Shown one piece after another: positions 1 to 47,671 of a stretch of DNA of 51,360 nt (position 1 is the first letter of the stretch; every line of letters starts with the position of its first letter). Source of the DNA: a virus; the IMG/VR virus record IMGVR_UViG_3300045988_172722, positions 1-51,360 of that record, one strand, 5' to 3'. The position numbers were made by a program, and so were the translations under genes. Below the pieces are notes generated by a model. The model saw only the letters and a list, made by a program, of their open reading frames with translations. It made no database searches and had not been told where the DNA came from.

Positions 1-25
1 CGGTTACAAGTCAAAAATCGCAAAG
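1..25. repeat. 25-bp repeat unit CGGTTACAAGTCAAAAATCGCAAAG, the same unit as the tandem array at the 3' end of the window
   Basis: nt 1-22 are identical to nt 51339-51360. The unit also occurs head-to-tail at 51289-51313 and 51314-51338. This implies a circularly closed or terminally redundant genome. Confidence 0.9.
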
Positions 26-57: not shown

Positions 58-358
58 GAAACAATAGGAAACAATAGGAAACAATGATTGTTTATCACGT
101 AACTAATTGATTTTCAATAAGATAGACCACTTATAAACAATGTAAACAATAAAAATAAAAATCAAATAAAGAGATGTAATATAGTTGAATAATAGATTAT
201 ATAAATTATATAGACTCAAATCTATAAATCCGAATATGGTTTATAGAGGCTTTGTTTCTATTGTTTCTATTGTTTACTCATTGACTATCAATCAGTTATG
301 ATTCTCGCTATTGTTTCTCATTGAAAATCAATTAGTTATGAGACTATTCTCGCAAAGA
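58..358. promoter_or_regulatory. Iteron-like region A: direct GAAACAATAG repeats, an AT-rich core, the inverted copies, and ATTGA-N3-TCAAT palindromes
   Basis: Three 10-bp direct repeats lie at 58-67, 68-77 and 78-87 and run into the palindrome AAACAAT-G-ATTGTTT (79-93). AAACAAT occurs at 135-141 and 144-150. Reverse copies TATTGTTTC x3 lie at 250-277 and one more at 308-317. Palindromes lie at 106-118, 280-292 and 320-332. There is a ~40-bp tandem duplication (279-318 versus 319-358). The block 246-279 is nearly identical to 29328-29361. Confidence 0.8.
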
Positions 359-404: not shown

Positions 405-423
405 ATATTTATTAGTATATTTG
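405..423 (+). promoter_or_regulatory. Bacteroidota-type promoter, -7 box TATATTTG (416-423) within TTATTAGTATATTTGCA
   Basis: It matches the TAnnTTTG -7 consensus of Bacteroidota sigma-A promoters. The same TTATTAGTATATT(T/C)GCA string recurs at 4313-4333. It lies 31 nt upstream of ATG 454. Confidence 0.6.
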
Positions 424-2581: not shown

Positions 2582-4165
2582 ATGCAAATAAAACAAAAAT
2601 CATTAAAAGAAATGCAACAGACGGCTCTAAATACTTCTAATGGTGGAACCGTAAATCCTAAAGAGCTCTTAAAGGTAGAACTGCTATCATCTTTTGAAAA
2701 ATATACGCGGGTAATGTTCAAAGCCCAGTACCATCGTTCTTTTATAGTTGCAGAGCACCATAAGAGAATGTTTGAGGCATTACAGAATGTAGTAGATGGC
2801 AAATGTAAGAGACTTATAATCAATATAGCACCCCGATATGGTAAAACCGAGCTTGTTATCAAATCATTTATAAGTTGGTGCTTTGCATTAAATCCAAAGT
2901 GCCGATTTTTGCATCTGTCTTATTCAGATATACTTGTGTATGATAATTCGGAGACAATACGAAATATCATGCAAGAAGAGCTTTATAAGGCACTTTTTCC
3001 AAGTTCGGCTCTTGCATCTGAGAAAGGGTCAGCTAAGAGATGGAAAACTAAAGCAGGTGGTGAGCTTTATGCAGTATCAACACAAGGTCAGGTAACAGGT
3101 TTTGGTGCAGGAAATGTTGATATTGACCCAGATATTGATAAAATGGATGGGGGCAATGATATTTTTGTGTTCGATGACCACACCAATGAAGTACTTGGTA
3201 TGTTAAGAGCTACAACTAATATCTTCCAAGGTGCAATTGTAATCGATGACCCGATTAAGCCTGAAGACGCCGAGTCCGATATCGTTCGTGAACGTATCAA
3301 CATGCGTTTTGAGAACACAATCCGTAACCGTACCAACTCGCGTAACACGCCAATTATAATTATCATGCAAAGGCTACATGAACATGATTTGTGTGGCTAT
3401 TTGCAAGATGTAGAACCTGATGAATGGACTGTACTTTCAATGCCTGTTATACAAACAAACCCTGAGACAGGTGAAGAACATGCCTTATGGCCGATGAAGC
3501 ACACACTTGAAGAACTCTATAAGATGCGCGAGATAAATCCGTTAGTGTTTGATACACAGTATATGCAAGACCCAACTCCAAAAGAGGGTCTTATGTATGA
3601 AGGGTTTAGAACTTATAGGCCAGAAGAGCTACCAACAGGCAATAAAGCACTTCAAAAATGGAATTATACTGATACTGCTGACACAGGAGCTGACTTTTTG
3701 TGTTCTATTTGCTTCATAAACACGCCAGAATACGCTTATGTGACAGATGTAATGTTTACAGATGCTCCTATGGAGGTAACGGAGCCAAAGCAAGCTGAAT
3801 TATTAGCACGAAACCAAACAGTTGACTGCTTAATAGAGTCAAATAATGGCGGCCGAGGCTACTCAAGAAATGTCAAAAAGATACTTCGAGTTGATTTACG
3901 TAACTTTAAGTGTGCTATCAGAACATTTACGCAAACAGAGAATAAGAAAACCCGCATTTATACAGCGTCAGCTCAAGTCCAAAATGATATTCTATTCCCA
4001 GAAGGCTGGGATAAGAAGTGGCCTAAGTTCTATAATGCACTTATATCATATCGCAAAGATAATAAGAAGAGAAACCAGCATGATGATGCTCCAGATTGCT
4101 TGACTGGCGTATGGGAGATGCATAGTAGGAAAGGTGGAAAACGAAAAATACACCAAAGAAACTAA
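2582..4165 (+). CDS. terL: Terminase large subunit
   Basis: Motifs present are Walker A-like INIAPRYGKTE, Walker B-like AIVIDDPIKPED, and the C-terminal nuclease motif HDDAPDCL. The 527-aa size and the position are typical. Confidence 0.85.
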   Translation: MQIKQKSLKEMQQTALNTSNGGTVNPKELLKVELLSSFEKYTRVMFKAQYHRSFIVAEHHKRMFEALQNVVDGKCKRLIINIAPRYGKTELVIKSFISWCFALNPKCRFLHLSYSDILVYDNSETIRNIMQEELYKALFPSSALASEKGSAKRWKTKAGGELYAVSTQGQVTGFGAGNVDIDPDIDKMDGGNDIFVFDDHTNEVLGMLRATTNIFQGAIVIDDPIKPEDAESDIVRERINMRFENTIRNRTNSRNTPIIIIMQRLHEHDLCGYLQDVEPDEWTVLSMPVIQTNPETGEEHALWPMKHTLEELYKMREINPLVFDTQYMQDPTPKEGLMYEGFRTYRPEELPTGNKALQKWNYTDTADTGADFLCSICFINTPEYAYVTDVMFTDAPMEVTEPKQAELLARNQTVDCLIESNNGGRGYSRNVKKILRVDLRNFKCAIRTFTQTENKKTRIYTASAQVQNDILFPEGWDKKWPKFYNALISYRKDNKKRNQHDDAPDCLTGVWEMHSRKGGKRKIHQRN

Positions 4166-5305: not shown

Positions 5306-6989
5306 AAGACAGGTTATTCAGAAGGCTGTAAATATGCAGCGTCGTCTCCGTTTTCACACTGAGACGAATATCGCTGTATCTGATATTAACCAACCAACAA
5401 CTGTATTTTTAGATTGGGTAAGAAGATTGTTGCCAAAGGATAAATATAACATCTTTTTGCAGCTGTTCAAATTTCCATTGCCCACACCTGCTGTAGTTGA
5501 GGACGTCTATAGAGAGCTCGAAAGAGTTTTCTATAGCCGTAACTCATCTAGCTCATATCAATTCACAGACTCAGAACTTGCTGAAGATTGGTCTCAGTAT
5601 CGTAAGAGTAATCTTAATGAGCCCGAAGTATGGAAAACTACCGCTTGGAAACGAATGCAAGTATCTCCAAACAGTATACTTGTTGTTGACCTTCCGCTAG
5701 TACAAACTTCCACTCGACCTGAGCCATATTTCTATTGGCTTGAAATTGACTCTGTGATTGATTATGAGCTTTCTAAGCAAGATGAGAATTTGTTTAACTG
5801 GCTTATTTTTAATCAACCAGAGCATAGAATAGCAGTATTTGATGATACTAGTATTAGGATTTATCAGCTTAACGAAAAGAATGAAATTCAATCATTAGTT
5901 TCTGAGGCTCAGCATGATTTAGGATATTGCCCTGCAAGATTTTTTTGGTCAGCACAGTTAAATGAGAAAAATAAAGACCTTAAAAAGAATCCAATTACGA
6001 AAGAGCTTTCTAATTTGGATTGGTATTTGTTTTTCTCAATATCTAAACAGCATCTTGACCTTTATGCGCCATATCCTATTTACAGTGCCTATGAGGCTGA
6101 CTGTAATTTTGAGAATAGCGAAACTGGTGATTACTGCGATGGTGGCTTTTTGCGCAATGCTAAAGGAGAGTATAAGATACTTAATGATGGCACCGTGGAA
6201 AAATGCCCTTGCTGTAGTGAAAAAAGAATAGCTGGACCTGGTTCATTCTTAGAGGTACCTATACCTAATCAAACTGAGGGTGTAGTCGATATGCGTAATC
6301 CTGTTCAGATTACTACTATAGATAAAAATTCACTCGACTATAACGTTAACGAGTGTGCAAGGCTTAAAAATGAGATTGTTATTTCTGTAGTCGGTTCTGG
6401 AGGTACTGTAAGTGAAAAAGAAGCTATAAACGAAACACAAGTAACTGCTAATTTTGAAAGTAAGACTTCAGTGCTAAATGCTCTTAAGACCAATTTTGAG
6501 TTAGCACAGAAGTTCATTGAAGATACTGTTTGCAAACTCAGATATGGAAATGCTTTTATATCATCTTCTGTAAATTGGGGTACAGAGTTTTACGTTTTCA
6601 CTGTAACAGAGCTTTACTCTAAGTATAAACAATCGAAGGATAATGGAGCATCCAACTCAGAACTAGATGCTATATCGCAACAAATTCTTGAGGTTGAGTA
6701 TCGCAATAATCCTTTAGTACTTCAGAGAATGCTGATTTTGAAACAGTTAGAGCCTTATCCACATAAAACCCTGGATGAAGTGTTAAAACTGTATGAAAAA
6801 AAGTTAATAGATGAAAAATTGGTAAAACTTAAAATAAATTTTAGTACTTTAGTCGATAAATTTGAACGTGAAAACATTAACATAATTGAGTTTGCTTCAA
6901 ATAAATCGTTAAGAGAAAAAATTGATATAATAACAAATAAACTTTTAGAGTATGTTACAGAAAATGACACTACAGGAACTGCAGAATAG
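5256..6989 (+). CDS. Putative portal protein
   Basis: The call rests on size (~578 aa) and position downstream of terL and upstream of scaffold and capsid. No signature motif recognised. The start is uncertain (5205, 5256 or 5334). Confidence 0.5.
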   Translation: MGLELNQIKQILQKPSKRQVIQKAVNMQRRLRFHTETNIAVSDINQPTTVFLDWVRRLLPKDKYNIFLQLFKFPLPTPAVVEDVYRELERVFYSRNSSSSYQFTDSELAEDWSQYRKSNLNEPEVWKTTAWKRMQVSPNSILVVDLPLVQTSTRPEPYFYWLEIDSVIDYELSKQDENLFNWLIFNQPEHRIAVFDDTSIRIYQLNEKNEIQSLVSEAQHDLGYCPARFFWSAQLNEKNKDLKKNPITKELSNLDWYLFFSISKQHLDLYAPYPIYSAYEADCNFENSETGDYCDGGFLRNAKGEYKILNDGTVEKCPCCSEKRIAGPGSFLEVPIPNQTEGVVDMRNPVQITTIDKNSLDYNVNECARLKNEIVISVVGSGGTVSEKEAINETQVTANFESKTSVLNALKTNFELAQKFIEDTVCKLRYGNAFISSSVNWGTEFYVFTVTELYSKYKQSKDNGASNSELDAISQQILEVEYRNNPLVLQRMLILKQLEPYPHKTLDEVLKLYEKKLIDEKLVKLKINFSTLVDKFERENINIIEFASNKSLREKIDIITNKLLEYVTENDTTGTAE

Positions 6990-7407
6990 TACTGTTGACG
7001 CACTTAAGCAGGCTCATACTGCAGCAAAAGCCCATCAAGCTGGCCTCCAGAAGCTTAAATCAAGCAAAGATAAGAAGTGGACAGAAGCAATGCAAGAAGA
7101 CCTTGATGCTACAGCTCTTTATATTGTAGATATTGAGGATGTTCTCGAAGAAAAAACTTCATCTACCGTCAGTAGTGAATATGAGCCAAAAGCTGGTACT
7201 GAAAAGCTTGTACATCTGTCGATTGTAAAAGGCCGCCGCTTTAATCCTATGACAGGGAAAGAAGAAAGCAAACCGTGTACTCAGTTATTTACATTTGCTG
7301 AGTGGCAACTTTTCAAAAAGAATTTCAAAGGTCTTGGCTATTCTATAATGAAAGTACTGCATGACCCATACGGAGAGGCAAAAGATTTTGTTGCAAAAGA
7401 AAATTAA
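6952..7407 (+). CDS. Hypothetical head-module protein
   Basis: This is a 151-aa ORF between the portal and scaffold candidates. Confidence 0.5.
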   Translation: MLQKMTLQELQNSTVDALKQAHTAAKAHQAGLQKLKSSKDKKWTEAMQEDLDATALYIVDIEDVLEEKTSSTVSSEYEPKAGTEKLVHLSIVKGRRFNPMTGKEESKPCTQLFTFAEWQLFKKNFKGLGYSIMKVLHDPYGEAKDFVAKEN

Positions 7408-28756: not shown

Positions 28757-29149
28757 ATGCGAGAATATGCGAGAATAATTATAATAGCAATTGTAGCTTT
28801 ATGTCTTAGTGCATGCAAAAGTATAAAGTATGTACCAGTTGAAACTGTTAAAGTAGATACTACATATATTTCGCAAACCAAAATTGATAGCATATATCAT
28901 AGAGACTCTATATATGTAGAGCACAAAGGTGATACAGTATATTTGAGCAAATATAAGTATCTGTATAAATATATAGAAAAACATGACACTCTTTGGCGTG
29001 AAAAAATCGATACAATTCAAGTTACATATCCTGTAGAAGCTCAACTTACTAAATGGCAAAAGATAAAAATTAATATGGGCGAATACCTAATAGCTGCCAT
29101 AGTTTTAATAACTATATGGCTGTGCGTAAAATACTTCATAAAGCGGTAA
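28757..29149 (+). CDS. Unimolecular spanin candidate (N-terminal lipoprotein signal plus C-terminal TM helix)
   Basis: The lipobox is in IIIAIVALCLSAC|K (L-S-A-C). The C-terminal hydrophobic helix is YLIAAIVLITIWLCVKYF. It is the last gene of the lysis cassette. Confidence 0.65.
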   Translation: MREYARIIIIAIVALCLSACKSIKYVPVETVKVDTTYISQTKIDSIYHRDSIYVEHKGDTVYLSKYKYLYKYIEKHDTLWREKIDTIQVTYPVEAQLTKWQKIKINMGEYLIAAIVLITIWLCVKYFIKR

Positions 29150-29154
29150 ACGAT

Positions 29155-29361
29155 GTAAACAATAGAAACAATTTATTGTTTATGCTCTAAAGTATTCAAA
29201 ATCAATCACTTAGATATGCTGTAAACAATGGAAACAATAGAAATATAAATCTTTTATATTATGCTAATCTAGATATTGATTAACTATAGAGTTAATCGGA
29301 ATTTAAAAAATTAGGTTAGAAATATACGAGGCTTTGTTTCTATTGTTTCCATTGTTTACAG
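29155..29361. promoter_or_regulatory. Iteron-like region B, paralogous to region A
   Basis: GTAAACAATAGAAACAAT runs into the palindrome AAACAAT-TT-ATTGTTT (29166-29181). GTAAACAATGGAAACAATAGAAAT lies at 29221-29244. After an AT-rich core comes GAGGCTTTGTTTCTATTGTTTCCATTGTTTAC (29328-29359), nearly identical to 247-278. Confidence 0.8.
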
Positions 29362-29458
29362 CCTTATTTATATAGAATTGCAGCGCCAAAAATGCAAAAT
29401 TGCTGTTTTAATATTTTTAACAAGAAAATTCTCAAAAAATATAGGAAAAATTTTTTTC

Positions 29459-29500
29459 TTTCGAGAATAGTTTGTATATTTGCATATCGAAAATAATGAA
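29459..29500 (+). promoter_or_regulatory. Early-type promoter cassette, copy 1 of 3 (-7 box TATATTTG at 29475-29482)
   Basis: CGAGAATAGTTTGTATATTTGCATATCGAAAATAATGAAG is nearly identical to the reverse complements of 48889-48934 and 50710-50756. It lies 70 nt upstream of ATG 29552. Confidence 0.7.
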
Positions 29501-29551
29501 GATATGGCGATAGCCAAATTATAAAATAAGATACTAAAATTCAACAGAAAT

Positions 29552-29965
29552 ATGGAACAGTTTAACATTAACAGCGTAATTGAGCATTATAAGCTGAACA
29601 CAGAAGATTTAGCAAAGGTGCTATTTCCTACTGTTAAATATCCAAAACAAGCCTTTGACCGAGTATTAAAAGGCGAAACGGATTTGGATATTAAACAGAT
29701 AGAAACATTAGCCTCTCATATAGGCGTGTTAGTAACTGACCTGTTTTTAGCAGGTATTTGGAAAGCTTCATCAGAAGACGGTTGCCTTACAATGCTGAAA
29801 GGCGATTATAAAGTCAAGCTGAATTATAAAGGCGTGTTCGTGTCTATATATAAAAATAACAAATTGATTGAGCAGAAAATTTCCAACGTACCAGATATGA
29901 CAATGCAAGAGTTTATGAACTATATTGATAACTTTATTAAAAATTACGAAAATGGAAGCAATTAA
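29552..29965 (+). CDS. Putative HTH DNA-binding regulator (first gene of the early plus-strand unit)
   Basis: The N-terminal LNTEDLAKVLFPTVKYPKQAFDRVLKGETDLDIKQIETLASHIGVLVTDLF has an XRE/Cro-like helix-turn-helix layout. Confidence 0.5.
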   Translation: MEQFNINSVIEHYKLNTEDLAKVLFPTVKYPKQAFDRVLKGETDLDIKQIETLASHIGVLVTDLFLAGIWKASSEDGCLTMLKGDYKVKLNYKGVFVSIYKNNKLIEQKISNVPDMTMQEFMNYIDNFIKNYENGSN

Positions 29966-30374
29966 AATTTCCGTAGAGGTTAGCGTAAACCTGTCAGAAA
30001 ATACGCAGAACTTCATCAAGTCATTGTTTGGTAATGTGGCTACTTCTGTTGCTGCTCCAGCTCAGAAACCCGCTCCTGTAGCACCTGCTAAACCGGCTCA
30101 GCCAGCGTCCGCTCCGGCCCCAAAGCCTCAAGCTCCAGCTGCAGCATCTGCTCAAACAAAACCTGCTGCTACTCCTGCTCCTGGAGCACCTGCTGCTCAG
30201 GCTGCTTCTTCTGCCTCTAAGAGCATAGAAGATGTGCGCGCAATGCTTGCAAAGAAGGTGAATGAGCACCGCGATGTAATCAAGCAGAAACTCAATGAAC
30301 TTGGCGCTCCGAGTGTAACAAAGCTTGACCCGACCAAGTATGACGAAATGTTTAACTTCTTAGAGTCACTGTAA
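29952..30374 (+). CDS. Hypothetical protein with a long Ala/Pro-rich linker
   Basis: The start is ATG 29952 (MEAIKISVEV). It contains APAQKPAPVAPAKPAQPASAPAPKPQAPAAASAQTKPAATPAPGAPAAQA followed by a small helical C-terminal domain. Confidence 0.6.
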   Translation: MEAIKISVEVSVNLSENTQNFIKSLFGNVATSVAAPAQKPAPVAPAKPAQPASAPAPKPQAPAAASAQTKPAATPAPGAPAAQAASSASKSIEDVRAMLAKKVNEHRDVIKQKLNELGAPSVTKLDPTKYDEMFNFLESL

Positions 30375-30533
30375 TAGCAAATCAAAAGAAGCTGCAACAA
30401 GCAGCAATCAAGTTCCGTAAACAAAATCCTACGTTGCATGCAACATACTCAGTTTTACTTTCAGCTATGGCTAGATTTATTACAAAGTCTGGAGCCCCTG
30501 AAGTAACAGTAGGATATAAAAATAGAGAGTATT

Positions 30534-31751
30534 ATGCGTATGCAAACAACTAGCACTAAGTTACAGAAACATAGCCAGAGGAGTCATGCACTCCTCTCGG
30601 CTTCTGGAGCTGGAAGATGGCTTAATTGTACTCCATCTGCAAAGCTCGAAGATGAATATGGAGAAAAGAAAAGCTCCGTATATGCGCAAGAAGGCACGTT
30701 GGCTCATGAACTTTCAGAGCTTTATATTAGGCGTGATACTTTATTTGATATTAGTGAGCAAGACTTTGACCAGTGCCTTGAAGAGATAATGGCAAATGAG
30801 CTGTTTAATGAGGAAATGCTTGATGTAGTTCCAACTTATACAGATTATTGTGCAGCCCAATTAGCAGAAGCTAAGACAGCTAATCCTTTGGCCGTAATGG
30901 AAATTGAGCAGAAACTCGATTTGACAGACTTTATACCAGAGAGCTTTGGAACGGCTGACTGTGTTATTATCAATGACAACCTCATGGAAGTTATTGATTT
31001 GAAATACGGAAAAGGAGTTCCAGTATATGCTGAATGGAATAAACAACTTATGCTTTATGGCCTTGGAGCATTACAGAAATATGATACTATGTATGATATA
31101 TCTGAGGTACGATTGACAATTGTACAGCCGCGTATCAACAATATATCTTCATGGCAAATATCTGTAGAAGAGCTTCGTAAATGGGCTGAAGAGGAACTTA
31201 AGCCAAAAGCACAACTTGCATTTAATGGTGAAGGTGAGCTTAATGCTGGAGATTGGTGCAGATTTTGTGCTGTTCGCAATCAATGTAGAAAGTTATATGA
31301 GCAACAGCTTGAAATAGCTCAGCATGAGTTTGCAGAACCAGCACTTCTTACAGATGATGAGATTGCTGATATTGTTCGCCGTACTCCTAAGCTTATAGAG
31401 TGGGCTAATTCTATTGCAGAATATGCACAGAAAAAAGCTATAGAAGAAAATAAGCAATGGCCAGGTCTTAAGCTTGTTGAAGGCATAAGTAGACGCAAAT
31501 GGATTGATGAAGACCAAGCCTCAAATGCAATCTTTGCTCGTTGCCCTGAGCTATCAGAAGATGAGATTTTCAGCATGAAGCTAAAGCCAATTACTTCTAT
31601 TGAGAAGATAGTAGGCAAAAAACGCTTTGAAGAAATTCTATCTGATGTGGTTGTAAAACCTCAAGGCAAACCTACTCTCGTATCGCTTGAAGACAAGAGA
31701 CCAGCAATGGGTTATAATCAAGCACAACTAGACTTCGCAGAAGAAGCGTAA
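30534..31751 (+). CDS. PD-(D/E)XK nuclease of the DUF2800 / Cas4-like family
   Basis: The N-terminus is HALLSASGAGRWLNCTPS. The nuclease core is TADCVIINDNLMEVIDLKYGKG. The C-terminal Cys cluster is WCRFCAVRNQC. Confidence 0.8.
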   Translation: MRMQTTSTKLQKHSQRSHALLSASGAGRWLNCTPSAKLEDEYGEKKSSVYAQEGTLAHELSELYIRRDTLFDISEQDFDQCLEEIMANELFNEEMLDVVPTYTDYCAAQLAEAKTANPLAVMEIEQKLDLTDFIPESFGTADCVIINDNLMEVIDLKYGKGVPVYAEWNKQLMLYGLGALQKYDTMYDISEVRLTIVQPRINNISSWQISVEELRKWAEEELKPKAQLAFNGEGELNAGDWCRFCAVRNQCRKLYEQQLEIAQHEFAEPALLTDDEIADIVRRTPKLIEWANSIAEYAQKKAIEENKQWPGLKLVEGISRRKWIDEDQASNAIFARCPELSEDEIFSMKLKPITSIEKIVGKKRFEEILSDVVVKPQGKPTLVSLEDKRPAMGYNQAQLDFAEEA

Positions 31752-31784
31752 CAACTCAAGTATAACAATTAAAATTAAGTAAAA

Positions 31785-32333
31785 ATGGAAAATTCAACAA
31801 AAGTTGTAACTGGCAAAGTAAGATTTTGCTACGTGAACGTGTTCGAGCCCACGGCTATGAACGAGGGTGATACCCCTAAGTACAATATCTGCATTCTTAT
31901 CCCGAAGGATGATGCAAAGACCCTCGACAAGATTAACAAAGCTATAGAGGCAGCTAAGCAGGCAGGTAAAGCCAAGCTTGCAGACAAGAATGGCAAAATA
32001 CCCTCAAACCTCAAATTGCCTCTGCGTGATGGCGATGATGAGCGTGGTGATGACCCCGCATTTGAAGGCATGTATTTTATCAACGCTAATAGCCAGCGCA
32101 AGCCAAGCATCGTGGACAAAGAGCTTAATCCTATTATGGAAAAAGAAGAGTTTTATAGTGGTTGCTATGGTCGTGCATCAATTAACTTCTATGCCTTTAA
32201 TGTATCATCAAAAGGTATTGCAGCTGGACTGAATAATCTTCAGAAACTCGAAGATGGCGAGATGTTGGCCGGTGGCTCTACCGCTGAAGAGGACTTTGGT
32301 GGTGAGAACGAATGGGATGATGAGCTGATGTAA
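31785..32333 (+). CDS. Phage ssDNA-binding protein (DUF2815 family)
   Basis: It starts VVTGKVRFCYVNVFEP and has an acidic C-terminal tail (EEDFGGENEWDDELM). It follows the DUF2800 nuclease, as in the conserved polA-type replication module. Confidence 0.7.
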   Translation: MENSTKVVTGKVRFCYVNVFEPTAMNEGDTPKYNICILIPKDDAKTLDKINKAIEAAKQAGKAKLADKNGKIPSNLKLPLRDGDDERGDDPAFEGMYFINANSQRKPSIVDKELNPIMEKEEFYSGCYGRASINFYAFNVSSKGIAAGLNNLQKLEDGEMLAGGSTAEEDFGGENEWDDELM

Positions 32334-32361
32334 TTTCCTTTCTGCATCAAAATTTCCCTAA

Positions 32362-32442
32362 AGTATAGTAGTTTAATGGTAAAACCATAGAGCGCCATTG
32401 ATTTGTGTGCCTATTATGCGGGTTCGAGTCCCGCCTATGCTC
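32362..32442 (+). tRNA. tRNA-like gene with a non-canonical, over-long anticodon arm (anticodon not assignable)
   Basis: The 7-bp acceptor stem AGTATAG/CTATGCT has one G-U pair. The D arm is GTTT-AATGGTA-AAAC. The T arm GCGGG-TTCGAGT-CCCGC is perfect. The anticodon region folds as ATAG-(A)-GCGC / GTGC-CTAT with an 11-nt loop CATTGATTTGT instead of a 5-bp stem and 7-nt loop. Total length is 81 nt without CCA. Confidence 0.55.
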
Positions 32443-32471
32443 CTAATTATATAATACTAAATTAAGAAATA

Positions 32472-34445
32472 ATGGTGAAAAATCTTTTTATAGACGTCGA
32501 AACATTCTCCTCAGTAGATATTAAAGAATCTGGCGCATACAAATATATAGAGTCGCCAGACTTTGAGATACTGATTATAGGATATGCATTAGATGATGAG
32601 CCAGTTAACATTGTTGATTTAGCTCAAGGCGAGGAAATGCCTGAGGAGTTTGAAGAAGCGTTACTTGACCCGAAGTGTATAAAAGTTGCTCATAACGCAG
32701 TATTTGAGCGGCTTAGTTTTAAGCGAATAGGTTATAATGTTCCAGCAGAGCAGTGGTATTGTACTTCAGTAAAAGCTGCGTATTGTGGCTTACCACTTTC
32801 ATTGGATGGAGTATCAAAAGCTCTTAATCTTACGGATAAGAAGCTTGATACTGGTAAAGCACTTATTAAGTACTTTTCATGCCCATGTAAAGCAACTCGA
32901 GTTAATGGAATGCGTACACGCAATTATCCAAAACATGCCCCTGAAAAGTGGGAAATGTATAAAGAGTATAATAAATATGATGTCTTGGCTGAGCGTGAGA
33001 TATTTCATAGATTAGAGTCTTATATCATTCCAAAGATTGAGCGAGAAATGTACGTGCTTGACCAGAATATCAATGATAGAGGTATTTTGGTAGATATGGA
33101 GTTAGCAGAGTCTGCTATCACAGTAGATAATACTTATACTTCTATATTAACTCAACATGCTCAGCAGTTAACAGGCCTTGAAAATCCAAATTCGCCTGTA
33201 CAAATTAGGCAATGGATAGAAAAGAAAACAGGTAATGCCATATTGTCACTTTCAAAAGAAACAATGCCTGATTTGCTTAAAGAGTTTGCGGACTATCCAG
33301 ACGTAATTGAGTTGCTCAATATACGCAAAAAACTATCAAAAACTTCAATTAAGAAGTATTATGCTATGCTCAATTGCGCTATGAAAGACCACAGAGTTAG
33401 AGGTACATTCCAATTCTATGGTGCAAATAGAACTGGTAGATGGGCAGGTAGATTATTACAGTTACAGAACTTATCAAAAAACCATATATCGCATATTGAA
33501 GTACCGCGTGAGTTAATCAGAGCCCGTGATTGGGAAACAGTTGAGATGATGTATGATGATGTCGCAGATATTCTTTCACAACTTGTAAGAACAGCGCTTA
33601 TACCTCCGCAGGGTATGAAATACGCCGTAGCAGACTTTTCGGCCATTGAGGCAAGAGTAATATCTTGGCTTGCAGATGAAAAATGGCGATTAGATGTATT
33701 CCACGGTGATGGCAAGATTTATGAAGCAACTGGCGAAAAGATGTTTGGAGTTCCAAAGTCTGAAATTAAAAAAGGCTCAGTACTTCGCGACAAATCGAAA
33801 ATATCTGAATTGGCGCTTGGCTATGAAGGAGGTCTTGGAGCCTTAAAGCGAATGGGAGGCGATAAAATGGGCCTTTCAGATACAGAAATGATGTCACTAG
33901 TGCGTAAATGGCGTATGGCTAATCCATCTATAGTAGATATGTGGAAAGAAATTGATGAAGCTTCTAAAGAAGCTGTACGTTACCATAGAGCTGTTAAATG
34001 CACAAGCAAAAATATCATATTTGATTGCGATGGTGAATTTATGACAATTGAATTGCCAGTAGGTAGAAAGCTATTTTACTACAAACCAGAATTCAAAGAT
34101 AAGTATATAGGACGTTCTACTATGCCTATTCGTAGTCTTTGCTACAAAGGGATTGACCAGACAACCAAACAATGGATAAGCATAGATACCTATGGTGGTA
34201 AGCTGACCGAGAATATAGTTCAAGCAGTATCAAGAGATTTATTAGGCGATGCTATGCTTAGAATGGAAAAAGCCGGATATGGAATCGTTGGTTCAATTCA
34301 TGACGAAGTTATAACGGAAGTTCCGGAAGAGAATGCTCAATTGTGGTATGATAATCTGGTAAAAATCATGTCAACACCTCCTTTGTGGGCGCAGGATTTA
34401 CCCCTTAACGCAGATGGAGGAGTTATGGATTTTTACCAAAAATGA
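32472..34445 (+). CDS. Family A DNA polymerase with a 3'-5' exonuclease domain
   Basis: Exonuclease motifs are FIDVETFS (Exo I) and HNAVFERL (Exo II). Polymerase motifs are A VADFSAIEARV, B RDKSKISELALGYEGG and C GSIHDEVI. Confidence 0.9.
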   Translation: MVKNLFIDVETFSSVDIKESGAYKYIESPDFEILIIGYALDDEPVNIVDLAQGEEMPEEFEEALLDPKCIKVAHNAVFERLSFKRIGYNVPAEQWYCTSVKAAYCGLPLSLDGVSKALNLTDKKLDTGKALIKYFSCPCKATRVNGMRTRNYPKHAPEKWEMYKEYNKYDVLAEREIFHRLESYIIPKIEREMYVLDQNINDRGILVDMELAESAITVDNTYTSILTQHAQQLTGLENPNSPVQIRQWIEKKTGNAILSLSKETMPDLLKEFADYPDVIELLNIRKKLSKTSIKKYYAMLNCAMKDHRVRGTFQFYGANRTGRWAGRLLQLQNLSKNHISHIEVPRELIRARDWETVEMMYDDVADILSQLVRTALIPPQGMKYAVADFSAIEARVISWLADEKWRLDVFHGDGKIYEATGEKMFGVPKSEIKKGSVLRDKSKISELALGYEGGLGALKRMGGDKMGLSDTEMMSLVRKWRMANPSIVDMWKEIDEASKEAVRYHRAVKCTSKNIIFDCDGEFMTIELPVGRKLFYYKPEFKDKYIGRSTMPIRSLCYKGIDQTTKQWISIDTYGGKLTENIVQAVSRDLLGDAMLRMEKAGYGIVGSIHDEVITEVPEENAQLWYDNLVKIMSTPPLWAQDLPLNADGGVMDFYQK

Positions 34446-34454
34446 TTATTATTT

Positions 34455-36857
34455 ATGCAAGTAGGTAAATTAGAATATGATGAAAATCTTAGCATAGCTA
34501 TTGGAATGAGCGTTTCAAGTAAGATATGGAAAAATACCAAAATTACTTGGAATGCTCTAGTACAAAAGCTATCTACTCCAGTGGTGACTGCTGAAACATA
34601 TAAGCAGTTCATGAATGCCACTAAGGAGGAGCAAAGCAAGATAAAAGATGTCGGCGGTTTTGTGGGAGGATTTCTCACAAATGGCAGACGTGATAAAACT
34701 AATGTTTTATATCGCCAACTCCTTACTTTGGATGTGGACTTTTCACATGAAAATTTTTGGTGGGATTTCACAGTGTTATTTGGATGCGCAGCAGTTATAC
34801 ACTCAACTCATAAGTCGAGTACCACAAAACCAAGGCATAGATTGATAATTCCACTAGATAGAGAAGTATCACAAGAGGAATATCAAGCTATAGCAAGAAA
34901 AGTCGCCGGGGACCTAAACATTGATTTGTTTGACCAATCGACTTTTGATGTGAATAGACTTATGTTCTGGCCGTCTGTATCTTCAGATGCAGAGTACTAT
35001 TTTGAATTTCAAGATGGACCATTTCTTGAGGCTGATTATATACTAAGCTTGTATAATGATTGGCATGATACAAGTGAATGGCCAACTGCTTCAAATAGTA
35101 CTGATACTATATTACAAGCAATTAAAAAGCAAGAAGACCCTGAAAACAAAAAAGGTATTATTGGTTTATTTTGTCGTACATATTCAATTCAAGAAGCTAT
35201 TGAAACTTTTTTATCAGATATTTATGAAAAAGCAGGAGAAGATAGATACACGTATATTAATGGCTCAACAGCTGCTGGACTCATTATATACGAAGATAAA
35301 TTTGCTTATTCGCATCATGGAACGGACCCAGCAGGAGGTAGGTTGTGCAACGCCTTTGACCTTGTGCGTATTCATAAGTTTGGCCATTTAGATACAGGCA
35401 AAGAGAAAGAAGACAAGGACAAAAAGAGCTTCAAGGCAATGGAAGAATTTGCATCTAAAGACCCATTGACTAAGAAGCACATTGCAGATGAGAAATTTGC
35501 AGAAGCTAAATTCGAATTTGCTGAAGAAGCTATTCAAGAAGCAGAAGAGCAAACAGATGATGATTGGATGTCTCAGCTTGTTGCAAATACTAAAGGAGAC
35601 TTCGAAAATTCAGCCAATAACTTAAATATAATAATACAAAATGACCAATTCATTAAAAATGCGTTTAAGCGCAATACGTTCGACAATAAAGTCTATATTA
35701 CGAGGTCTATGCCGTGGCGTAGCATATCTGCTCCTGAGCCCGTTCGTGATGTCGATTATTCTGGTGTTCGCAATTATATTGAGTGTGTATATGGTATTGT
35801 TGCAAGCCAGAAAGTTGATGATGCGATGGCACTCGAAATTGAAAAGAAAAAGTTTCATCCAATAGTAGAATATTTAAAAGAGCTTAGCTGGGATGGTATT
35901 AAGAGAATAGATACTTTGCTAATAGATTATTTTGGAGCAGATGATAACTTATACACTAGAGCTGCCATCAGAAAGTCTCTTTGCGCGGCCGTTGCCAGAG
36001 TGCTTGTGCCAGGTATGAAATTCGACACGGCACTTATATTGGTTGGTCCACAAGAAACATACAAAAGTACATTTATCAAAAAGCTCGGTAAAGAATGGTT
36101 TTCAGACACATTTACGACAGTACAAGGCAAGGAGTCATTTGAACAATTGCAAGGAGCGTGGATAATTGAAATGGCAGAGCTTTCAGGATTGAAAAAAGCA
36201 GAAGTTGAAACAATTAAGCATTTCATATCAAAACGTGAGGACCAGTTTAGACCAGCATACGGTAGAACAGTAGAAACTTATAAGCGTCAATGCGTGTTTT
36301 TCGGTACTACTAATAAAGATGATTTTTTGCGCGACCCTACAGGAAATAGACGCTTTTTGCCTATAGATGTTAGGCCAGAGTTTGTAAAGAAGTCGGTAGC
36401 TGATGACCTTATAGAATATGAAGTAGACCAAATATGGGCTGAGGCATATCAGTTATATATAGCAGGAGAACCTCTATATATGACAGGTGAAGAAGATAAG
36501 ATTGCTAAGATTGAGCAACATAAACACTCAGAGTCAGACGAGCGCAAAGGTATTATCGAAGAGTTTCTTAATAGAAAATATCCAGACAACTGGAGCGAAA
36601 TGGACTTTTATGACAGAAGAAGATGGCTTGAAGACCCATTATCGCAGAACGGAACAATTCAAAAGGACTTTGTATGTGTTGCAGAGATATGGTGCGAATG
36701 CCTCGGTAAAGATAAAACAGATATGGATAGATACAAAACACGTGAGATAAATGAAATTCTTAAGTCACTAAGTGATTGGGAATATATAAACTCAACAAAG
36801 AATTTCTCCATATACGGTAAACAAAAGTATTATAAACGTAAAGATAGCTTATTATGA
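34455..36857 (+). CDS. Primase-helicase (BT4734/VirE-N-like primase-polymerase domain plus VirE/D5-type P-loop NTPase)
   Basis: The N-terminal region reads LTLDVDFSHENF...STHKSSTTKPRHRLIIPL. Walker A is LILVGPQETYKSTF and Walker B-like is AWIIEMAELSG. The ORF is 800 aa. Confidence 0.8.
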   Translation: MQVGKLEYDENLSIAIGMSVSSKIWKNTKITWNALVQKLSTPVVTAETYKQFMNATKEEQSKIKDVGGFVGGFLTNGRRDKTNVLYRQLLTLDVDFSHENFWWDFTVLFGCAAVIHSTHKSSTTKPRHRLIIPLDREVSQEEYQAIARKVAGDLNIDLFDQSTFDVNRLMFWPSVSSDAEYYFEFQDGPFLEADYILSLYNDWHDTSEWPTASNSTDTILQAIKKQEDPENKKGIIGLFCRTYSIQEAIETFLSDIYEKAGEDRYTYINGSTAAGLIIYEDKFAYSHHGTDPAGGRLCNAFDLVRIHKFGHLDTGKEKEDKDKKSFKAMEEFASKDPLTKKHIADEKFAEAKFEFAEEAIQEAEEQTDDDWMSQLVANTKGDFENSANNLNIIIQNDQFIKNAFKRNTFDNKVYITRSMPWRSISAPEPVRDVDYSGVRNYIECVYGIVASQKVDDAMALEIEKKKFHPIVEYLKELSWDGIKRIDTLLIDYFGADDNLYTRAAIRKSLCAAVARVLVPGMKFDTALILVGPQETYKSTFIKKLGKEWFSDTFTTVQGKESFEQLQGAWIIEMAELSGLKKAEVETIKHFISKREDQFRPAYGRTVETYKRQCVFFGTTNKDDFLRDPTGNRRFLPIDVRPEFVKKSVADDLIEYEVDQIWAEAYQLYIAGEPLYMTGEEDKIAKIEQHKHSESDERKGIIEEFLNRKYPDNWSEMDFYDRRRWLEDPLSQNGTIQKDFVCVAEIWCECLGKDKTDMDRYKTREINEILKSLSDWEYINSTKNFSIYGKQKYYKRKDSLL

Positions 36858-36960
36858 TAGTAAATTTTTTCAAAGTTATATCTGGGGACCATAGAAATAA
36901 GACGCTACTTGTCTCTAGAAATATAGATACGCGTGAGTATAATGTTTTGCTAATACAGGT

Positions 36961-37260
36961 ATGAAGCAGATAGACAGCGAGAAACTAGTAGAACGGAGAT
37001 TAGTGGAGCTCGTCAAAATAAATAATGGCATGTGTATAAAGCTATTATGTGACCAGCTGATAGGTTTACCTGATAGGCTCTGTTTATTTCCTAACCATAA
37101 AATGGCATTTGTGGAAACTAAGACCACAGGTCAAAAGCCAAGACGCATACAAGCCTATATGCACAAAAAGCTTAGAGCTCTTGGCTTCAGAGTCGAAGTA
37201 ATTGACTCAGTTGAAGACGTGATAAATTTCGTAGAAGATATAATGCTAAATAAACAATGA
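36961..37260 (+). CDS. VRR-NUC domain nuclease
   Basis: The PD-(D/E)XK signature is GLPDRLCLFPNHKMAFVETKTTGQKPRRIQ. The 99-aa size is typical. Confidence 0.75.
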   Translation: MKQIDSEKLVERRLVELVKINNGMCIKLLCDQLIGLPDRLCLFPNHKMAFVETKTTGQKPRRIQAYMHKKLRALGFRVEVIDSVEDVINFVEDIMLNKQ

Positions 37261-37697
37261 GGGGCGAAAAGATACTATTAACTTGCGAAAAATGTGGAAA
37301 GCAGTTTATAAGGTATAAATGCTTAATAAAGCCAGGCATTACTCATTTCTTTTGCAGCAGAGCTTGTGCTAAAGAGCATTTAAGTACAAAAATGACTAAG
37401 ATGAATGAGGACTTAAATCCTACTAGAATGGATAACTTTGAAACAAGGTTAGCTGTTAGAGAAGGTCATCTTAGGAATAATACTGGAAAAGAGCATAGCT
37501 ATCCTAAGATATTTGGAACTCATGCACATAGAATACTAGCAGAAGAAATAATAGGAAGACCACTTAAGAAAGGTGAAGTAGTACATCATAAAGATGGTAA
37601 TCCTAGAAATAATTCTATTGATAACTTAGAAGTTTTAAGTTCACAAGCTGAGCACGCAAAACTTCATTGTAAAGATGAAAGGTTTTCAAAATGCTAA
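37257..37697 (+). CDS. HNH endonuclease with an N-terminal Cys-rich (zinc-finger-like) segment
   Basis: The motifs are CEKCGKQF...FCSRAC and VVHHKDGNPRNNSIDNLEVLSSQAEHAKLH. It is inserted between the VRR-NUC and SNF2 genes. Confidence 0.85.
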   Translation: MRGEKILLTCEKCGKQFIRYKCLIKPGITHFFCSRACAKEHLSTKMTKMNEDLNPTRMDNFETRLAVREGHLRNNTGKEHSYPKIFGTHAHRILAEEIIGRPLKKGEVVHHKDGNPRNNSIDNLEVLSSQAEHAKLHCKDERFSKC

Positions 37698-39121
37698 CAG
37701 AAAAAAACATGCATGGCTATCAGCGGGCAGCAGTAGAGTTTATAATTACTCATTCGTACTGTGGCGTATTTCTTGACCTTGGGCTTGGCAAAACGGTATC
37801 AACTCTTACTGCTATAAACTATTTGATGTTTGACTATCTGGAAATAAATTCAGTATTAGTCATAGCACCAAAAAGAGTCGCTGAGTCAGTTTGGCAAGAA
37901 GAAGCTGAAAAGTGGGACCACTTAAAACACTTGCGCTTTTCAAAAATCATTGGTACTCAGAAACAGCGAATACAAGCAATAACAGAAGTAAAAGCTGATG
38001 TCTATATTATATCAAGAGATAATGTCGCATGGCTATGTGCTATGTATGGCGGAGGCAAATTGCCATTTGATATGGTAGTAGTTGATGAGCTTAGCAGCTT
38101 TAAGTCTTATAAGTCTGAACGTTTTAAGGCTTTACGTGGAGCAAGGCCTTATCTTAAGCGTTTAGTTGGGCTAACTGGCACTCCAGCACCTAATGGGCTT
38201 ATTGACTTGTGGCCTCAAATATATCTTATGGATAGAGGCGAGCGCCTTGAAAAGACAATATCTAGATACAGAGAAAGATATTTCCGGCCAGGCCAAACTA
38301 ATGGGCATGTTGTCTATTCTTATAATCTTATGGATGACTCAGAGAAGCTTATTCATAAGAAAATAGAGGATATTTGCATAAGCATGAAAGCAGACGATTA
38401 TCTTGAAATGCCATTCAGGACAGATAACTATATAAAGCTTAGAATGCCTGATAACTTGAAAAAGCAATATGATAATTTTGAAAAAGAGAAAGTGCTCGAC
38501 TTAATTAAGCCAGAAAGCACGTATTTAGAAAATGCCGATAAATGGGTTGATAAACCTGTTGAAATTAATGTTGTTAACGCGGCGGCTCTTTCAAATAAAT
38601 TATTACAATTTGCTAATGGCGCAATATACGATGAAGAAAGAAACATATTTCCAATTCATGATATAAAGCTGGATGCTCTTAAGGAAATAATAGAGGATGC
38701 AAATGGCCAATCTGTATTAGTTGCATGGACTTATCAATTTGACCGTGATAGAATAATGAAGCATCTTAAAGCATATAAGCCAAGAGAGCTTAAAACCAAT
38801 AAAGATATTGAAGACTGGAATACAGGCAAAATACAAGTTATGCTTGCACATCCGGCATCAGCAGGCCATGGACTTAATCTTCAAGCAGGAGGCAGTATAA
38901 TAGTCTGGTTTGGACAAACATGGAGCTTAGAGTTGTATCAACAATTCAATGCTCGATTATATCGTCAAGGCCAACAAAATCACGTGGTAATTAACCATTT
39001 GATATTACAAGGCACTCATGATGAAGATGTTATTAGAGCACTTAAAGCAAAGGACAGAAAACAGAATGCTCTTATGGATAGTATTAAAGCAAAAATTGAC
39101 AAATATAAAAAATTCATGTGA
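37691..39121 (+). CDS. SNF2-family (superfamily 2) helicase
   Basis: Motifs are I LDLGLGKT, II VVVDELSSFK, III LTGTPAPN, V AGHGLNLQ and VI QQFNARLYRQGQ. Confidence 0.85.
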   Translation: MLTEKNMHGYQRAAVEFIITHSYCGVFLDLGLGKTVSTLTAINYLMFDYLEINSVLVIAPKRVAESVWQEEAEKWDHLKHLRFSKIIGTQKQRIQAITEVKADVYIISRDNVAWLCAMYGGGKLPFDMVVVDELSSFKSYKSERFKALRGARPYLKRLVGLTGTPAPNGLIDLWPQIYLMDRGERLEKTISRYRERYFRPGQTNGHVVYSYNLMDDSEKLIHKKIEDICISMKADDYLEMPFRTDNYIKLRMPDNLKKQYDNFEKEKVLDLIKPESTYLENADKWVDKPVEINVVNAAALSNKLLQFANGAIYDEERNIFPIHDIKLDALKEIIEDANGQSVLVAWTYQFDRDRIMKHLKAYKPRELKTNKDIEDWNTGKIQVMLAHPASAGHGLNLQAGGSIIVWFGQTWSLELYQQFNARLYRQGQQNHVVINHLILQGTHDEDVIRALKAKDRKQNALMDSIKAKIDKYKKFM

Positions 39122-39122
39122 T

Positions 39123-39341
39123 ATGTTTACAAAGCAAGAATGTAAAAAGCTTATAGCTAAAAAGCTTGAAGACAAGCAGATAATTTCTAGAAGAGAGTTA
39201 ATAAATACTGGTAGAAAGTATGTAGGCAGTAATTCAAAGTATTTTGCTTCTGTAGATGCCGTGGTCGATGCATCATTAAAAAAATTAGTGTCTGTAGGTG
39301 TTATAGCAAAAATAGAAAAAGGACAATATAAAAAAGCATAG
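39123..39341 (+). CDS. Small hypothetical protein
   Basis: ATG 39123 lies 1 nt after the helicase stop. The product is 72 aa. The longer ORF-track version (39018) overlaps the helicase and is unlikely. Confidence 0.5.
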   Translation: MFTKQECKKLIAKKLEDKQIISRRELINTGRKYVGSNSKYFASVDAVVDASLKKLVSVGVIAKIEKGQYKKA

Positions 39342-39343
39342 TA

Positions 39344-39685
39344 ATGGGAAGAAATGGTAAAGCAATTCCGGTTTTTTCTAGAATGATTAAGCTGGTGAAT
39401 GATAACATAGGAAATGTTATCAGCTCAGAAGAAATGCTATTAGGCAATGAGCCTGGTAGAAACTCAGTGACTGCTTACGTATACAAGTTTGTAAAGCTTG
39501 GATATATAGAAATGGCTACTGAAGGTAAAAAAGGTATACTTAGTAAAGAAACAACTTATAGAATTAAAAAAGCATTTCCAGACCATTATAATTCTGTAAT
39601 GCTGATGGATGAGCTAAGAGTATATAACGGGCTTATTCCTGAGAAACGAGATTTTGCAACCGCGCTAAATAGAGTAAAGGCATAA
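39344..39685 (+). CDS. Hypothetical protein
   Basis: This is a 113-aa ORF, tightly packed, and the last gene before a 240-bp intergenic region. Confidence 0.55.
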   Translation: MGRNGKAIPVFSRMIKLVNDNIGNVISSEEMLLGNEPGRNSVTAYVYKFVKLGYIEMATEGKKGILSKETTYRIKKAFPDHYNSVMLMDELRVYNGLIPEKRDFATALNRVKA

Positions 39686-39889
39686 AAGCAATAAAAAAAG
39701 TCAAGTAAGTGGAAGCTATTACAAAGATATGGTTTTCAACCAATAAAGCTAATAGCTGCTTTTAGATGTTCTTTTATTCAAGACTGTATAATAAAATATA
39801 TCAGTAGATATAAGAATGTATAATGCATGGTCAAGTTAAGAAGTGTTAAATATGTAATTTTTATGAGGAAAATTTTCTATTCTCGGAAA

Positions 39890-39903
39890 AAATTAGTATA
39901 TTC
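39890..39903 (+). promoter_or_regulatory. Promoter-like element AATTAGTATATTCACA (-7 variant TATATTCA)
   Basis: It shares the ATTAGTATATT core with the elements at 411-423 and 4319-4331. An ATTCTCGG variant precedes it at 39879-39886. It lies 26 nt upstream of ATG 39929. Confidence 0.4.
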
Positions 39904-39928
39904 ACATATCTAAAATAAGAATAGAAAA

Positions 39929-40177
39929 ATGGACAAGAAAAGAACATTTCAGCAAATAGCCAGAGACGTAAAGTCAACCTGGATGAATGTATACTTTGGA
40001 GCAGTGCCTTATCTTGAGGCATTATTAACGCTTGATACAACAGACCCAGAGGCTTTATATGGAATTGAGAAAGCTGGAGATATTGCAAGATACTTTTTAG
40101 CTAATGCTCAAACCTTTAGAGGAGCAGATGCAAGAAGATTAAAAGAAGAACTTAAAACTTTGATAAACAATGGCTAA
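39929..40177 (+). CDS. Small hypothetical protein
   Basis: This is an 82-aa ORF, first in the transcription unit. Confidence 0.55.
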   Translation: MDKKRTFQQIARDVKSTWMNVYFGAVPYLEALLTLDTTDPEALYGIEKAGDIARYFLANAQTFRGADARRLKEELKTLINNG

Positions 40178-40460
40178 TATTTTAGAACAAGCAAACAAAA
40201 TCGTAAATGAGCGCTCAGAAGAAAAAGAGCGTCAATATGGACCATTTCAAGCATCGATGGAAAGAGCAGCAGCTTTTTATAATCTGATGTCACCTAAAGA
40301 CCAGCAAATAACAACTGCTGGTATGTATAGAGCCATGATAGCTCTTAAGTTATCACGTGAAGCCTATGCGCACAAAGAGGATAATCTTCTTGATGCAGTA
40401 GCTTATATGGGCTCTATGAATGACTATCTGGAAGAGCATAAAGATATTTTCAATAAATAA
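40170..40460 (+). CDS. Small helical protein common in phage nucleotide-metabolism neighbourhoods (family not confidently named)
   Basis: The ORF is 96 aa. The motif NERSEEKERQYGPF...MIALKLSREAY...DNLLDAVAYMG matches, from memory, a recurring phage domain of unknown function. Confidence 0.55.
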   Translation: MANILEQANKIVNERSEEKERQYGPFQASMERAAAFYNLMSPKDQQITTAGMYRAMIALKLSREAYAHKEDNLLDAVAYMGSMNDYLEEHKDIFNK

Positions 40461-40472
40461 ACAGTTTTAACT

Positions 40473-41294: not shown

Positions 41295-41300
41295 TAAGAT

Positions 41301-42612: not shown

Positions 42613-42632
42613 ATAGGATTGATTTACACATT

Positions 42633-42717
42633 ATTCTCGCGCGTAATACCGTATGCAAAGTATGAAACAAAAGAAATATATTCAGAAAAACGCATAGGCT
42701 CTAGAGCGCGCGAGAAT
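42633..42717. promoter_or_regulatory. Inverted repeat ATTCTCGCGCG ... CGCGCGAGAAT
   Basis: Perfect 11-bp arms lie at 42633-42643 and 42707-42717, flanking 63 bp. It sits in the 121-bp gap after dut and before the GTG-start ORF at 42734. Confidence 0.65.
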
Positions 42718-42733
42718 ATATAAATCTTAAGCA

Positions 42734-43189: not shown

Positions 43190-43190
43190 T

Positions 43191-44400: not shown

Positions 44401-44405
44401 CTGAT

Positions 44406-46839: not shown

Positions 46840-46850
46840 ATTGCTTTATA

Positions 46851-47599: not shown

Positions 47600-47671
47600 A
47601 ATTATGCATATAGATAAAAAGAGAGAACCGCCTCATGCGAGACGGTCCTCATTGACTGATCGGCTGTGTGG

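Follow-up and report, generated by a model that had tools for sequence, protein, structure and literature searches.

The 51,360 bp stretch analyzed here (IMG/VR record IMGVR_UViG_3300045988_172722; hereafter the window) is a complete, circularly assembled phage genome, in which two paralogous regions, A (58-358) and B (29148-29357), carry arrays of short repeats (iterons) centered on the heptamer AAACAAT and converging on an AT-rich core. We read A and B, with a probability of roughly two in three, as two iteron-type replication origins of the kind known from staphylococcal pathogenicity islands (SaPIs) and P4, read by the winged-helix tail of the phage primase-helicase; this is a judgement based on sequence, a structural model and analogy. 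The origin reading is favored because the layout matches that of SaPI origins, a homolog of the SaPI initiator-helicase is encoded by the phage, and the predicted DNA-reading domain of this protein co-varies with the iteron type. At its two ends the window carries identical stretches of 22 nt, which lie within a 25-bp tandem repeat; the assembly is therefore circular, and region A prolongs a 1.2-kb non-coding stretch.

All the parts which a preliminary description had assigned to A and B are present, and upon alignment the two regions turned out to be collinear, with the parts in identical order. Each is made up by three forward (G/T)AAACAAT units plus an inverted copy, a ATTGAnnnTCAAT-type palindrome, a forward pair, a core of 90-100 bp, and three reverse units:

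58-85, plus strand, inverted copy at 87-93: region A outer-left array, three GAAACAATAG units at 10-bp spacing (Tandem Repeats Finder), AAACAAT-G-ATTGTTT being formed with the inverted copy
106-118, no strand: region A palindrome ATTGATTTTCAAT; the flank at 100-112 (minus strand) matches the E. coli integration host factor (IHF) consensus WATCAANNNNTTR, and the position is kept in relatives
135-150, plus strand: region A inner-left iteron pair (AAACAATGTAAACAAT)
151-250, no strand: region A AT-rich core, candidate DNA-unwinding element, 100 bp, 82% A+T
251-275, minus strand: right-hand array of region A, three reverse iterons spaced 9 bp apart, lying in the block 246-277
267-348, no strand: region A 40-bp tandem duplication, 2.1 copies
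29148-29172, plus strand, inverted copy at 29175-29181: region B outer-left array, AAACGAT, AAACAAT and AAACAAT at 9-bp spacing, its start coinciding with the last late gene's stop codon
29194-29206 (feature 29194-29212), no strand: region B palindrome, degenerate (ATTCAAAATCAAT); the IHF consensus is matched at 29200-29212
29223-29238, plus strand: region B inner-left iteron pair
29239-29332, no strand: region B AT-rich core, 80% A+T
29333-29357, minus strand: region B right iteron array, three reverse copies within the 29328-29359 block

Region A thus totals five forward copies and one inverted copy, then the core, then three reverse copies. The 32-nt blocks holding the reverse copies (246-277 and 29328-29359), previously called nearly identical, are 97% identical, and the right array of region B is 100% complementary to its own inner-left pair across 26 nt. 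The extra modules attributed to region A were also found, namely three palindromes (106-118, 280-292, 320-332) and the 40-bp tandem duplication, each unit of which includes one reverse iteron (269-275, 310-316), a ATTGAnnnTCAAT palindrome (280-292, 320-332), an IHF-consensus match (286-298, 326-338) and the motif ATTCTCGC. The ATTGAnnnTCAAT/WATCAANNNNTTR element which separates the outer left array from the inner one probably serves, judging by its sequence, to bend the DNA or as an architectural site. Four of 11 genome-wide matches to the IHF consensus, which is that of E. coli and may not suit a Bacteroidota host, fall in A and B. An Rfam search of the whole window gave no match in either region.

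Clustering of AAACAAT in A and B is far above chance. The heptamer occurs 38 times in the genome, against 21.3 expected, and 38 occurrences were reached in 0 of 100 shuffles; 16 of the 38 copies are packed into about 0.5 kb (Poisson P 9e-15 for A, 1e-11 for B), and an unbiased scan for locally clustered 7-mers ranked AAACAAT first in the genome. When the nearest-neighbour duplex stability of all 90-bp windows was computed, the core of A fell in the lowest 0.12% and the core of B in the lowest 0.45%; the ten with the lowest stability genome-wide begin without exception at 122-140, inside region A.

Repeats devoid of function should be missing, or drift freely, in related phages. The comparison favored function, the arrays being kept in most relatives and the iteron columns conserved. 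Two samples of relatives were picked independently of the repeats, via the gene of the SSB, the protein that binds single-stranded DNA (n=70), and via the large terminase TerL (n=37). Convergent arrays reside at the B position, upstream of the first early gene, in 65 of 70 SSB-selected relatives, and at the A position in 25 of 37 TerL-selected relatives; B is the better conserved copy. IMG/VR contigs with the right-arm motif TTGTTTCYATTGTTTAC number more than 117; roughly half are relatives of the window and have the motif at the equivalent place. Ten diverged B regions, from genomes in which identity of the first early gene goes down to 47%, were aligned: pairwise identity is 0.89 in iteron columns, 0.44 in the AT core and 0.57 in the remaining columns. 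The core is 78-98 nt long in nine of these regions (one scores 56 nt), and its A+T content is 75-86% in all ten.

Croceibacter phage P2559Y, which has a marine Flavobacteriia host and proteins 22-65% identical to those of the window, has both regions, located upstream of the terminase genes and of the first early gene respectively, with identical GTAAACAAT units, and the AT cores of its two regions are nearly identical to each other. Judged by sequence, the conserved iteron element is common to phages of gut Bacteroides and to a marine phage of Croceibacter. Two copies are likewise found in an unrelated metagenomic lineage (L295). In the window the right arm of A equals the right arm of B; the close relative L119 has ATTGTTC variants at A. 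Copies within a genome are more alike than orthologous copies in other genomes, and therefore evolve in concert. No earlier description of the element was found in the literature on P2559Y, on BF486P2, or on iterons and origins of Bacteroides or Flavobacterium phages. A terminator scan and RNA folding of the right flank of B revealed no convincing terminator in the window genome; relatives have a hairpin there.

The candidate reader of the iterons is encoded in the early block:

34455-36857, plus strand: primase-helicase, candidate initiator, 800 aa, with an N-terminal primase (PHROG), a VapE/superfamily 3 (SF3) helicase core and a C-terminal winged helix
36615-36857, plus strand: C-terminal winged-helix domain, residues 721-800, with predicted recognition helix at 759-771 (RYKTREINEILKS) and wing at 775-795

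Residues 369-753 match SaPI1 Rep (PDB 7PDS chain A) with a phmmer E value of 2e-74, and a VapE-like domain was detected by Pfam (E 6e-83); a PDB sequence search with the primase-helicase returned no chain besides 7PDS. No DnaB-type helicase or loader was found in the replication module, which consists of the exonuclease, a gp2.5-like SSB, PolA, the VapE primase-helicase and an SNF2 helicase. Residues 641-800 were modeled by AlphaFold2 from a 53-sequence alignment; the model (pLDDT 85) features two helices, the recognition helix and a beta-hairpin wing. Foldseek searches with the model gave 7PDS chains as the only significant matches (E 4e-6, probability 1.0), winged-helix DNA-binding domains being non-significant. 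The latter include forkhead winged-helix-DNA complexes (E 0.2-0.8), and the iteron GTAAACAA(T) (e.g. 29155-29163, 29221-29229) equals the forkhead/FOXO DNA consensus, a resemblance which is probably a coincidence.

SaPI Reps are self-loading initiator-helicases in which a C-terminal winged helix recognises the iterons, and in SaPI origins an AT-rich region in the middle is flanked by six to twelve iterons, at least two per side and in opposite orientation (PMC9371898). The window shares with the SaPI Rep/PriRep systems (PDB 7PDS, 7OLA; PMC9371898) a homologous SF3/VapE-type helicase, fused to a primase as in PriRep5, a C-terminal winged helix, here predicted by AlphaFold2, and short iterons that flank a central AT-rich region in opposite directions, with at least two per side in both A and B. 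The two differ in that the window is a complete phage of virulent type infecting Bacteroidota, the SaPI a satellite; the iteron core is 7 nt long in a 9-bp unit, rather than 5-6 nt; there are two paralogous copies at operon boundaries, neither directly 3' of the helicase gene; and an extra conserved palindrome with an IHF-consensus match is present.

The proposed link between the winged helix and the iterons comes from the closest cultured relatives of the window, six Bacteroides fragilis phages (BF486P2 and its kin) about 70% identical to it in nucleotide sequence, in coding regions only. In most of the proteins shared, BF486P2 resembles the window more than P2559Y does, yet it lacks AAACAAT arrays. 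The helicase outside the last 80 residues follows this ranking (69% identity to the window in BF486P2, 57% in P2559Y), whereas in the last 80 residues the ranking is reversed (64-80% in P2559Y, 42-49% in BF486P2). When the 22 proteins common to the three genomes were scanned in successive segments, the C-terminal domain gave the strongest reversal (+0.47, 9 segments), and the sole one in an early protein. For this domain, identities of 75-80% to P2559Y and 42-45% to BF486P2 were also obtained. Residues of the recognition helix differ from those of the window at 7 of 13 positions in BF486P2, and at 2 of 13 in P2559Y. Nearly all of 34 distinct C-terminal domains from the fetched loci, including those of every locus with an AAACAA array, keep the motif RY[KNL]T[RK][ED]IN...[ST]T[KRA]NF..YGKQKYY; the two clear outliers, BF486P2 and the relative L284, have no arrays. 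At the two equivalent positions BF486P2 has two paralogous non-coding blocks (6780-7010 and 30390-30800 of its record) with other repeats, both blocks sharing a CCTATAATATAGG palindrome, AAAAGTTTCTAAGGAAAATAGTGAAAAC and ATTGnnnnTCAAT, and carrying CRTTTTRC repeats. As far as their sequences tell, the paired blocks fit a switch of specificity rather than the loss of the element.

That BF486P2, which infects B. fragilis, replaced its iterons together with the helicase C-terminal domain argues for a reader encoded by the phage, and against an origin dependent on DnaA or another host protein. The latter is one of several functions, along with packaging (pac/cos, the repeats being sites of the terminase small subunit) and partition (a centromere), which we regard as very improbable as a group, though IHF-consensus matches are found in both regions, the HNH and large-terminase genes follow downstream of region A, and many metagenomic contigs break near A. 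Matches to TTATCCACA with at most one mismatch number 11, against 16 expected, and none falls in A or B, which speaks against a DnaA origin; neither ParA nor ParB, nor an integrase or a repressor, was detected among the window genes, a result hardly in line with partition. A second, identical packaging site 29 kb away would split the genome in two, and it is B, the better conserved copy, that adjoins the replication genes.

Both regions lie next to promoters. The Bacteroidota-type -7 box is TAnnTTTG, and boxes were found at the two positions where promoters had been proposed:

416-423, plus strand: -7 box (TATATTTG) of the late/packaging operon promoter
29475-29482, plus strand: -7 box of the early promoter, in a block of 50-104 nt common to the leftward promoters 48906, 50627 and 50728

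This arrangement, with both regions directly upstream of the two main rightward promoters, in the window as in P2559Y, is what would be seen if the repeats were operator arrays only, bound by a phage transcription factor which controls the early (29475) and late (416) promoters or insulates the operons, with no role in replication initiation. The presence of solitary reverse iterons nearer the promoters (310-316 in the window; 118 and 180 in P2559Y) goes in the same direction, as do the DNA-binding candidates encoded, an OmpR-type regulator (45435-46145) and a NUMOD1 protein (454-1212). The main arrays, on the other hand, neither overlap nor abut a core promoter in A or B: the distance from the last reverse iteron to the -7 box is 139 bp in A and 118 bp in B, only the solitary iteron 310-316 being nearer. 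The AT core keeps its length and composition, not its sequence, which is typical of an unwinding element and is not needed in an operator. Moreover, no regulator is common to all the iteron-bearing phages. None of the three binders proposed in the preliminary description behaves as expected: the NUMOD1 protein is merely 28-45% identical among relatives which keep the iterons and has no homolog in P2559Y; the first early protein (29552-29965), which has no Pfam match, does not track the iteron type, being 50% identical to its counterpart in BF486P2, devoid of these iterons, and 22% to that in iteron-bearing P2559Y; the OmpR-type regulator is missing in P2559Y, as well as in BF486P2. The strongest iteron-tracking signal sits instead in the replication helicase. 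A purely regulatory function is in our view distinctly unlikely. Of the two functions set side by side in the preliminary description, origin and operator, the first is favored, on the grounds of layout, initiator homology and domain covariation given above, and the second, left with no candidate regulator, is improbable as the main role; it may be a secondary role beside that of origin.

The block surrounding the early -7 box recurs with 80-90% identity over 50-104 nt at 29434-29537 and, on the minus strand, at 48853-48956, 50712-50763 and 50611-50662, and is missing at the late promoter 416. Its sequence suggests that early promoters form a distinct class, with a regulator site of their own.

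Several observations weigh against the origin reading. The helicase gene is not adjacent to the arrays, as it is in SaPIs: B ends 5.1 kb upstream of it, A starts about 14.6 kb downstream round the circle, and the gap of about 100 bp behind the gene (36858-36960) holds no array. Two origins in a genome are unusual, and both copies are located at major promoters, positions which a transcriptional role would equally predict. GC skew and cumulative skew track gene orientation, that is the direction of transcription, with no inflection, hence no origin signal, at A or B. Region A is less conserved than B, other repeats being found at its position in some relatives (e.g. AGTGAAA in L121) and arrays being absent from that position in relatives L179-L191. 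The covariation rests on essentially one evolutionary switch, that of the BF486P2 clade, plus the weaker case of L284, and could reflect unrelated mosaicism; searches of IMG/VR seeded with the BF486P2 helicase and exonuclease gave no close relatives of BF486P2 in which further switches might be seen. Enrichment of CRTTTTRC, the proposed replacement iteron of BF486P2, is modest (21 vs. 11.8 expected).

If A and B are origins, the primase-helicase would act as a self-loading SF3 initiator-helicase, the C-terminal winged helix recognising 9-bp units, (G/T)NAAACAAT, which converge from either side on a readily melting core of about 90-100 bp. Docked via their winged helices, hexamers would build up on both iteron arms and open the AT-rich core, the fused primase would prime synthesis, and replication would be handed over to the phage PolA, gp2.5-like SSB and SNF2 helicase. 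The two copies sit at both operon boundaries of the circular genome (late to early, early to late), and their division of labour may take three forms: both may fire; one may fire and the other enhance initiation, in the manner of P4 ori/crr; or one may fire and the other stall forks, as proposed for SPP1 oriL/oriR.

In the second and third forms the helicase would bind both regions and a single copy would fire, the other being an accessory, either a looping enhancer similar to P4 crr or, as has been put forward for SPP1 oriR, a fork barrier that makes theta replication give way to concatemer synthesis. The much better conservation of B, with the counts given above and the divergent A of L121, is in keeping with such unequal roles. 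So are the extra modules of A, and the recombination set encoded by the phage (a PD-(D/E)XK exonuclease, the gp2.5-like annealing SSB and a VRR-NUC nuclease), which is analogous to the fork-restart set of SPP1. The complete layout, with left arms, core and right arm, is nevertheless kept in both copies, and the core of A is the most easily melted DNA of the genome, arguing that A can open; a single firing copy seems to us unlikely. A broader proposal, which we hold tentatively and as rather improbable, is that many Bacteroidota phages, members of one large family, use the twin regions as a conserved system of boundaries: initiation would take place at one copy, and the other, loaded with the helicase, would be a programmed fork barrier or looping partner which triggers the switch from circle to concatemer and couples replication to the change from early to late transcription, gene conversion keeping the copies alike.

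Paired cis regions have been met before. The alpha protein of P4 unites primase, helicase and C-terminal origin-binding domain in one polypeptide, ori and crr are separate cis regions with identical iterons, and P4 requires ori plus crr. By analogy, the domain order of the window protein (primase, helicase, winged helix) and the two cis regions with common iterons recall P4. The P4 regions are, in contrast, 4.5 kb apart and differ in layout, whereas A and B are collinear paralogs lying 29 kb and 22 kb apart round the circle. A reading with two origins has a precedent in SPP1, where oriL and oriR are similarly organised and served by one initiator (gp38), the second being proposed to stall forks and trigger concatemer synthesis (PMC6316719). 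SPP1 and the window each have two regions made up by repeats and an AT-rich unwinding element, a candidate one in the window, with one region early and one late; encoded as well are an exonuclease, an annealing protein, an SSB and a resolvase. Differently from the window, gp38 works with a loader and a DnaB-type helicase, proteins unrelated to those found here, the SPP1 repeats are direct only, and oriL is located inside gene 38.

Staphylococcus phage vB_SpsS_QT1 (NC_048192) has a homologous VapE-type helicase, with VRR-NUC and then SNF2 helicase genes downstream, an order shared with the window, and lends the origin reading some support. At 3040-3335, directly 3' of the helicase gene, an AT-rich spacer of 78 nt is enclosed by about twelve CGT[CG]CCTT repeats, which run in both orientations. 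Unlike A and B, this is a single copy at a SaPI-like position, with iterons of unrelated sequence, annotated merely as repeat_region; from its sequence it looks like an unrecognised SaPI-type origin in a phage.

The genes of the window are arranged in three blocks:

454-29149, rightward: late block, with the NUMOD1 protein, HNH endonuclease and large terminase, then open reading frames homologous to P2559Y portal, head, tail and amidase genes
29552-46145, rightward: early block, with the PD-(D/E)XK exonuclease, gp2.5-like SSB, PolA, 800-aa primase-helicase, VRR-NUC and a second HNH, and further with the SNF2 helicase, a methyltransferase, a dUTPase, a thymidylate-synthase-like enzyme and the OmpR-type regulator
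46202-50589, leftward: short block

The OmpR-family response regulator, with a receiver and a winged-helix output domain, is encoded by the last early gene (plus strand), and is something that phages do not usually carry. Rfam reports a tRNA at 32362-32442 (plus strand; 43.5 bits against a gathering score of 29), between the genes for SSB and PolA; ARAGORN found no tRNA in the whole window. The gene of the thymidylate-synthase family (43349-44035, plus strand) has a BF486P2 homolog annotated as deoxycytidylate 5-hydroxymethyltransferase; because of this, the phage DNA may carry modified cytosines, which would affect the readout of the single C:G pair of each iteron.

Additional repeats are found around region A and the genome junction:

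51281-51360, continuing at 1-25, plus strand: 25-bp tandem repeat (TCGCAAAGCGGTTACAAGTCAAAAA), 3.2 copies, carrying the TCGCAAAG/ATTCTCGC motif, directly upstream of region A

The 25-bp repeat may or may not belong to the proposed origin. At this locus relatives vary in both repeat unit and copy number (at least five copies in L127, one in L119). Of 80 related contigs, about 17 break off no more than about 200 bp from the repeat junction, which suggests either an assembly breakpoint or a physical end of the genome. The motif ATTCTCGC occurs 15 times in the window, at 41, 301, 346, 385(-), 4175, 4186, 4254(-), 12789, 12801, 28680, 28759(-), 28769(-), 42633, 42710(-) and 51277, mostly as inverted pairs which enclose 30-70 bp in intergenic gaps, and is present in relatives L119, L122 and L127 as well. 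In RNA, the 301/385 pair could fold into a long stem with a T-run behind it (z -2). The copies of ATTCTCGC might serve as terminators or attenuators, or as sites for another regulator. The 1.2 kb of non-coding DNA upstream of the terminase block includes a GC-rich stretch of GGCA repeats (50980-51225). At its end stands a conserved GC hairpin (AGGCCCCTGGCTGTGCGGCACCGGGCCCC, about 51190-51220), with CTTATATAT coming next, and similar elements are found in L119, L121, L122 and BF486P2. With an HNH gene next to that of the terminase, the stretch is a candidate cos site.

To our knowledge, practically no Bacteroidota phage has had its replication origin mapped, and this holds for the abundant Bacteroides siphoviruses of the human gut related to the window. 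The origin reading would match an origin with its initiator in a form open to experiment: on one side a 9-bp iteron, on the other a winged helix of 80 residues, those for recognition being named. The pair is kept in phages of gut and ocean alike, and the BF486P2 clade would be a natural specificity-swap control for it. It would extend the paradigm of the SaPI self-loading helicase from satellites of Gram-positive bacteria to complete phages of another phylum, and would add to SPP1 a second system in which to study the purpose of two origins. In practical terms, the element could seed phage-derived replicons for Bacteroides genetics, and may be of use as a sequence marker of this phage family in viromes.

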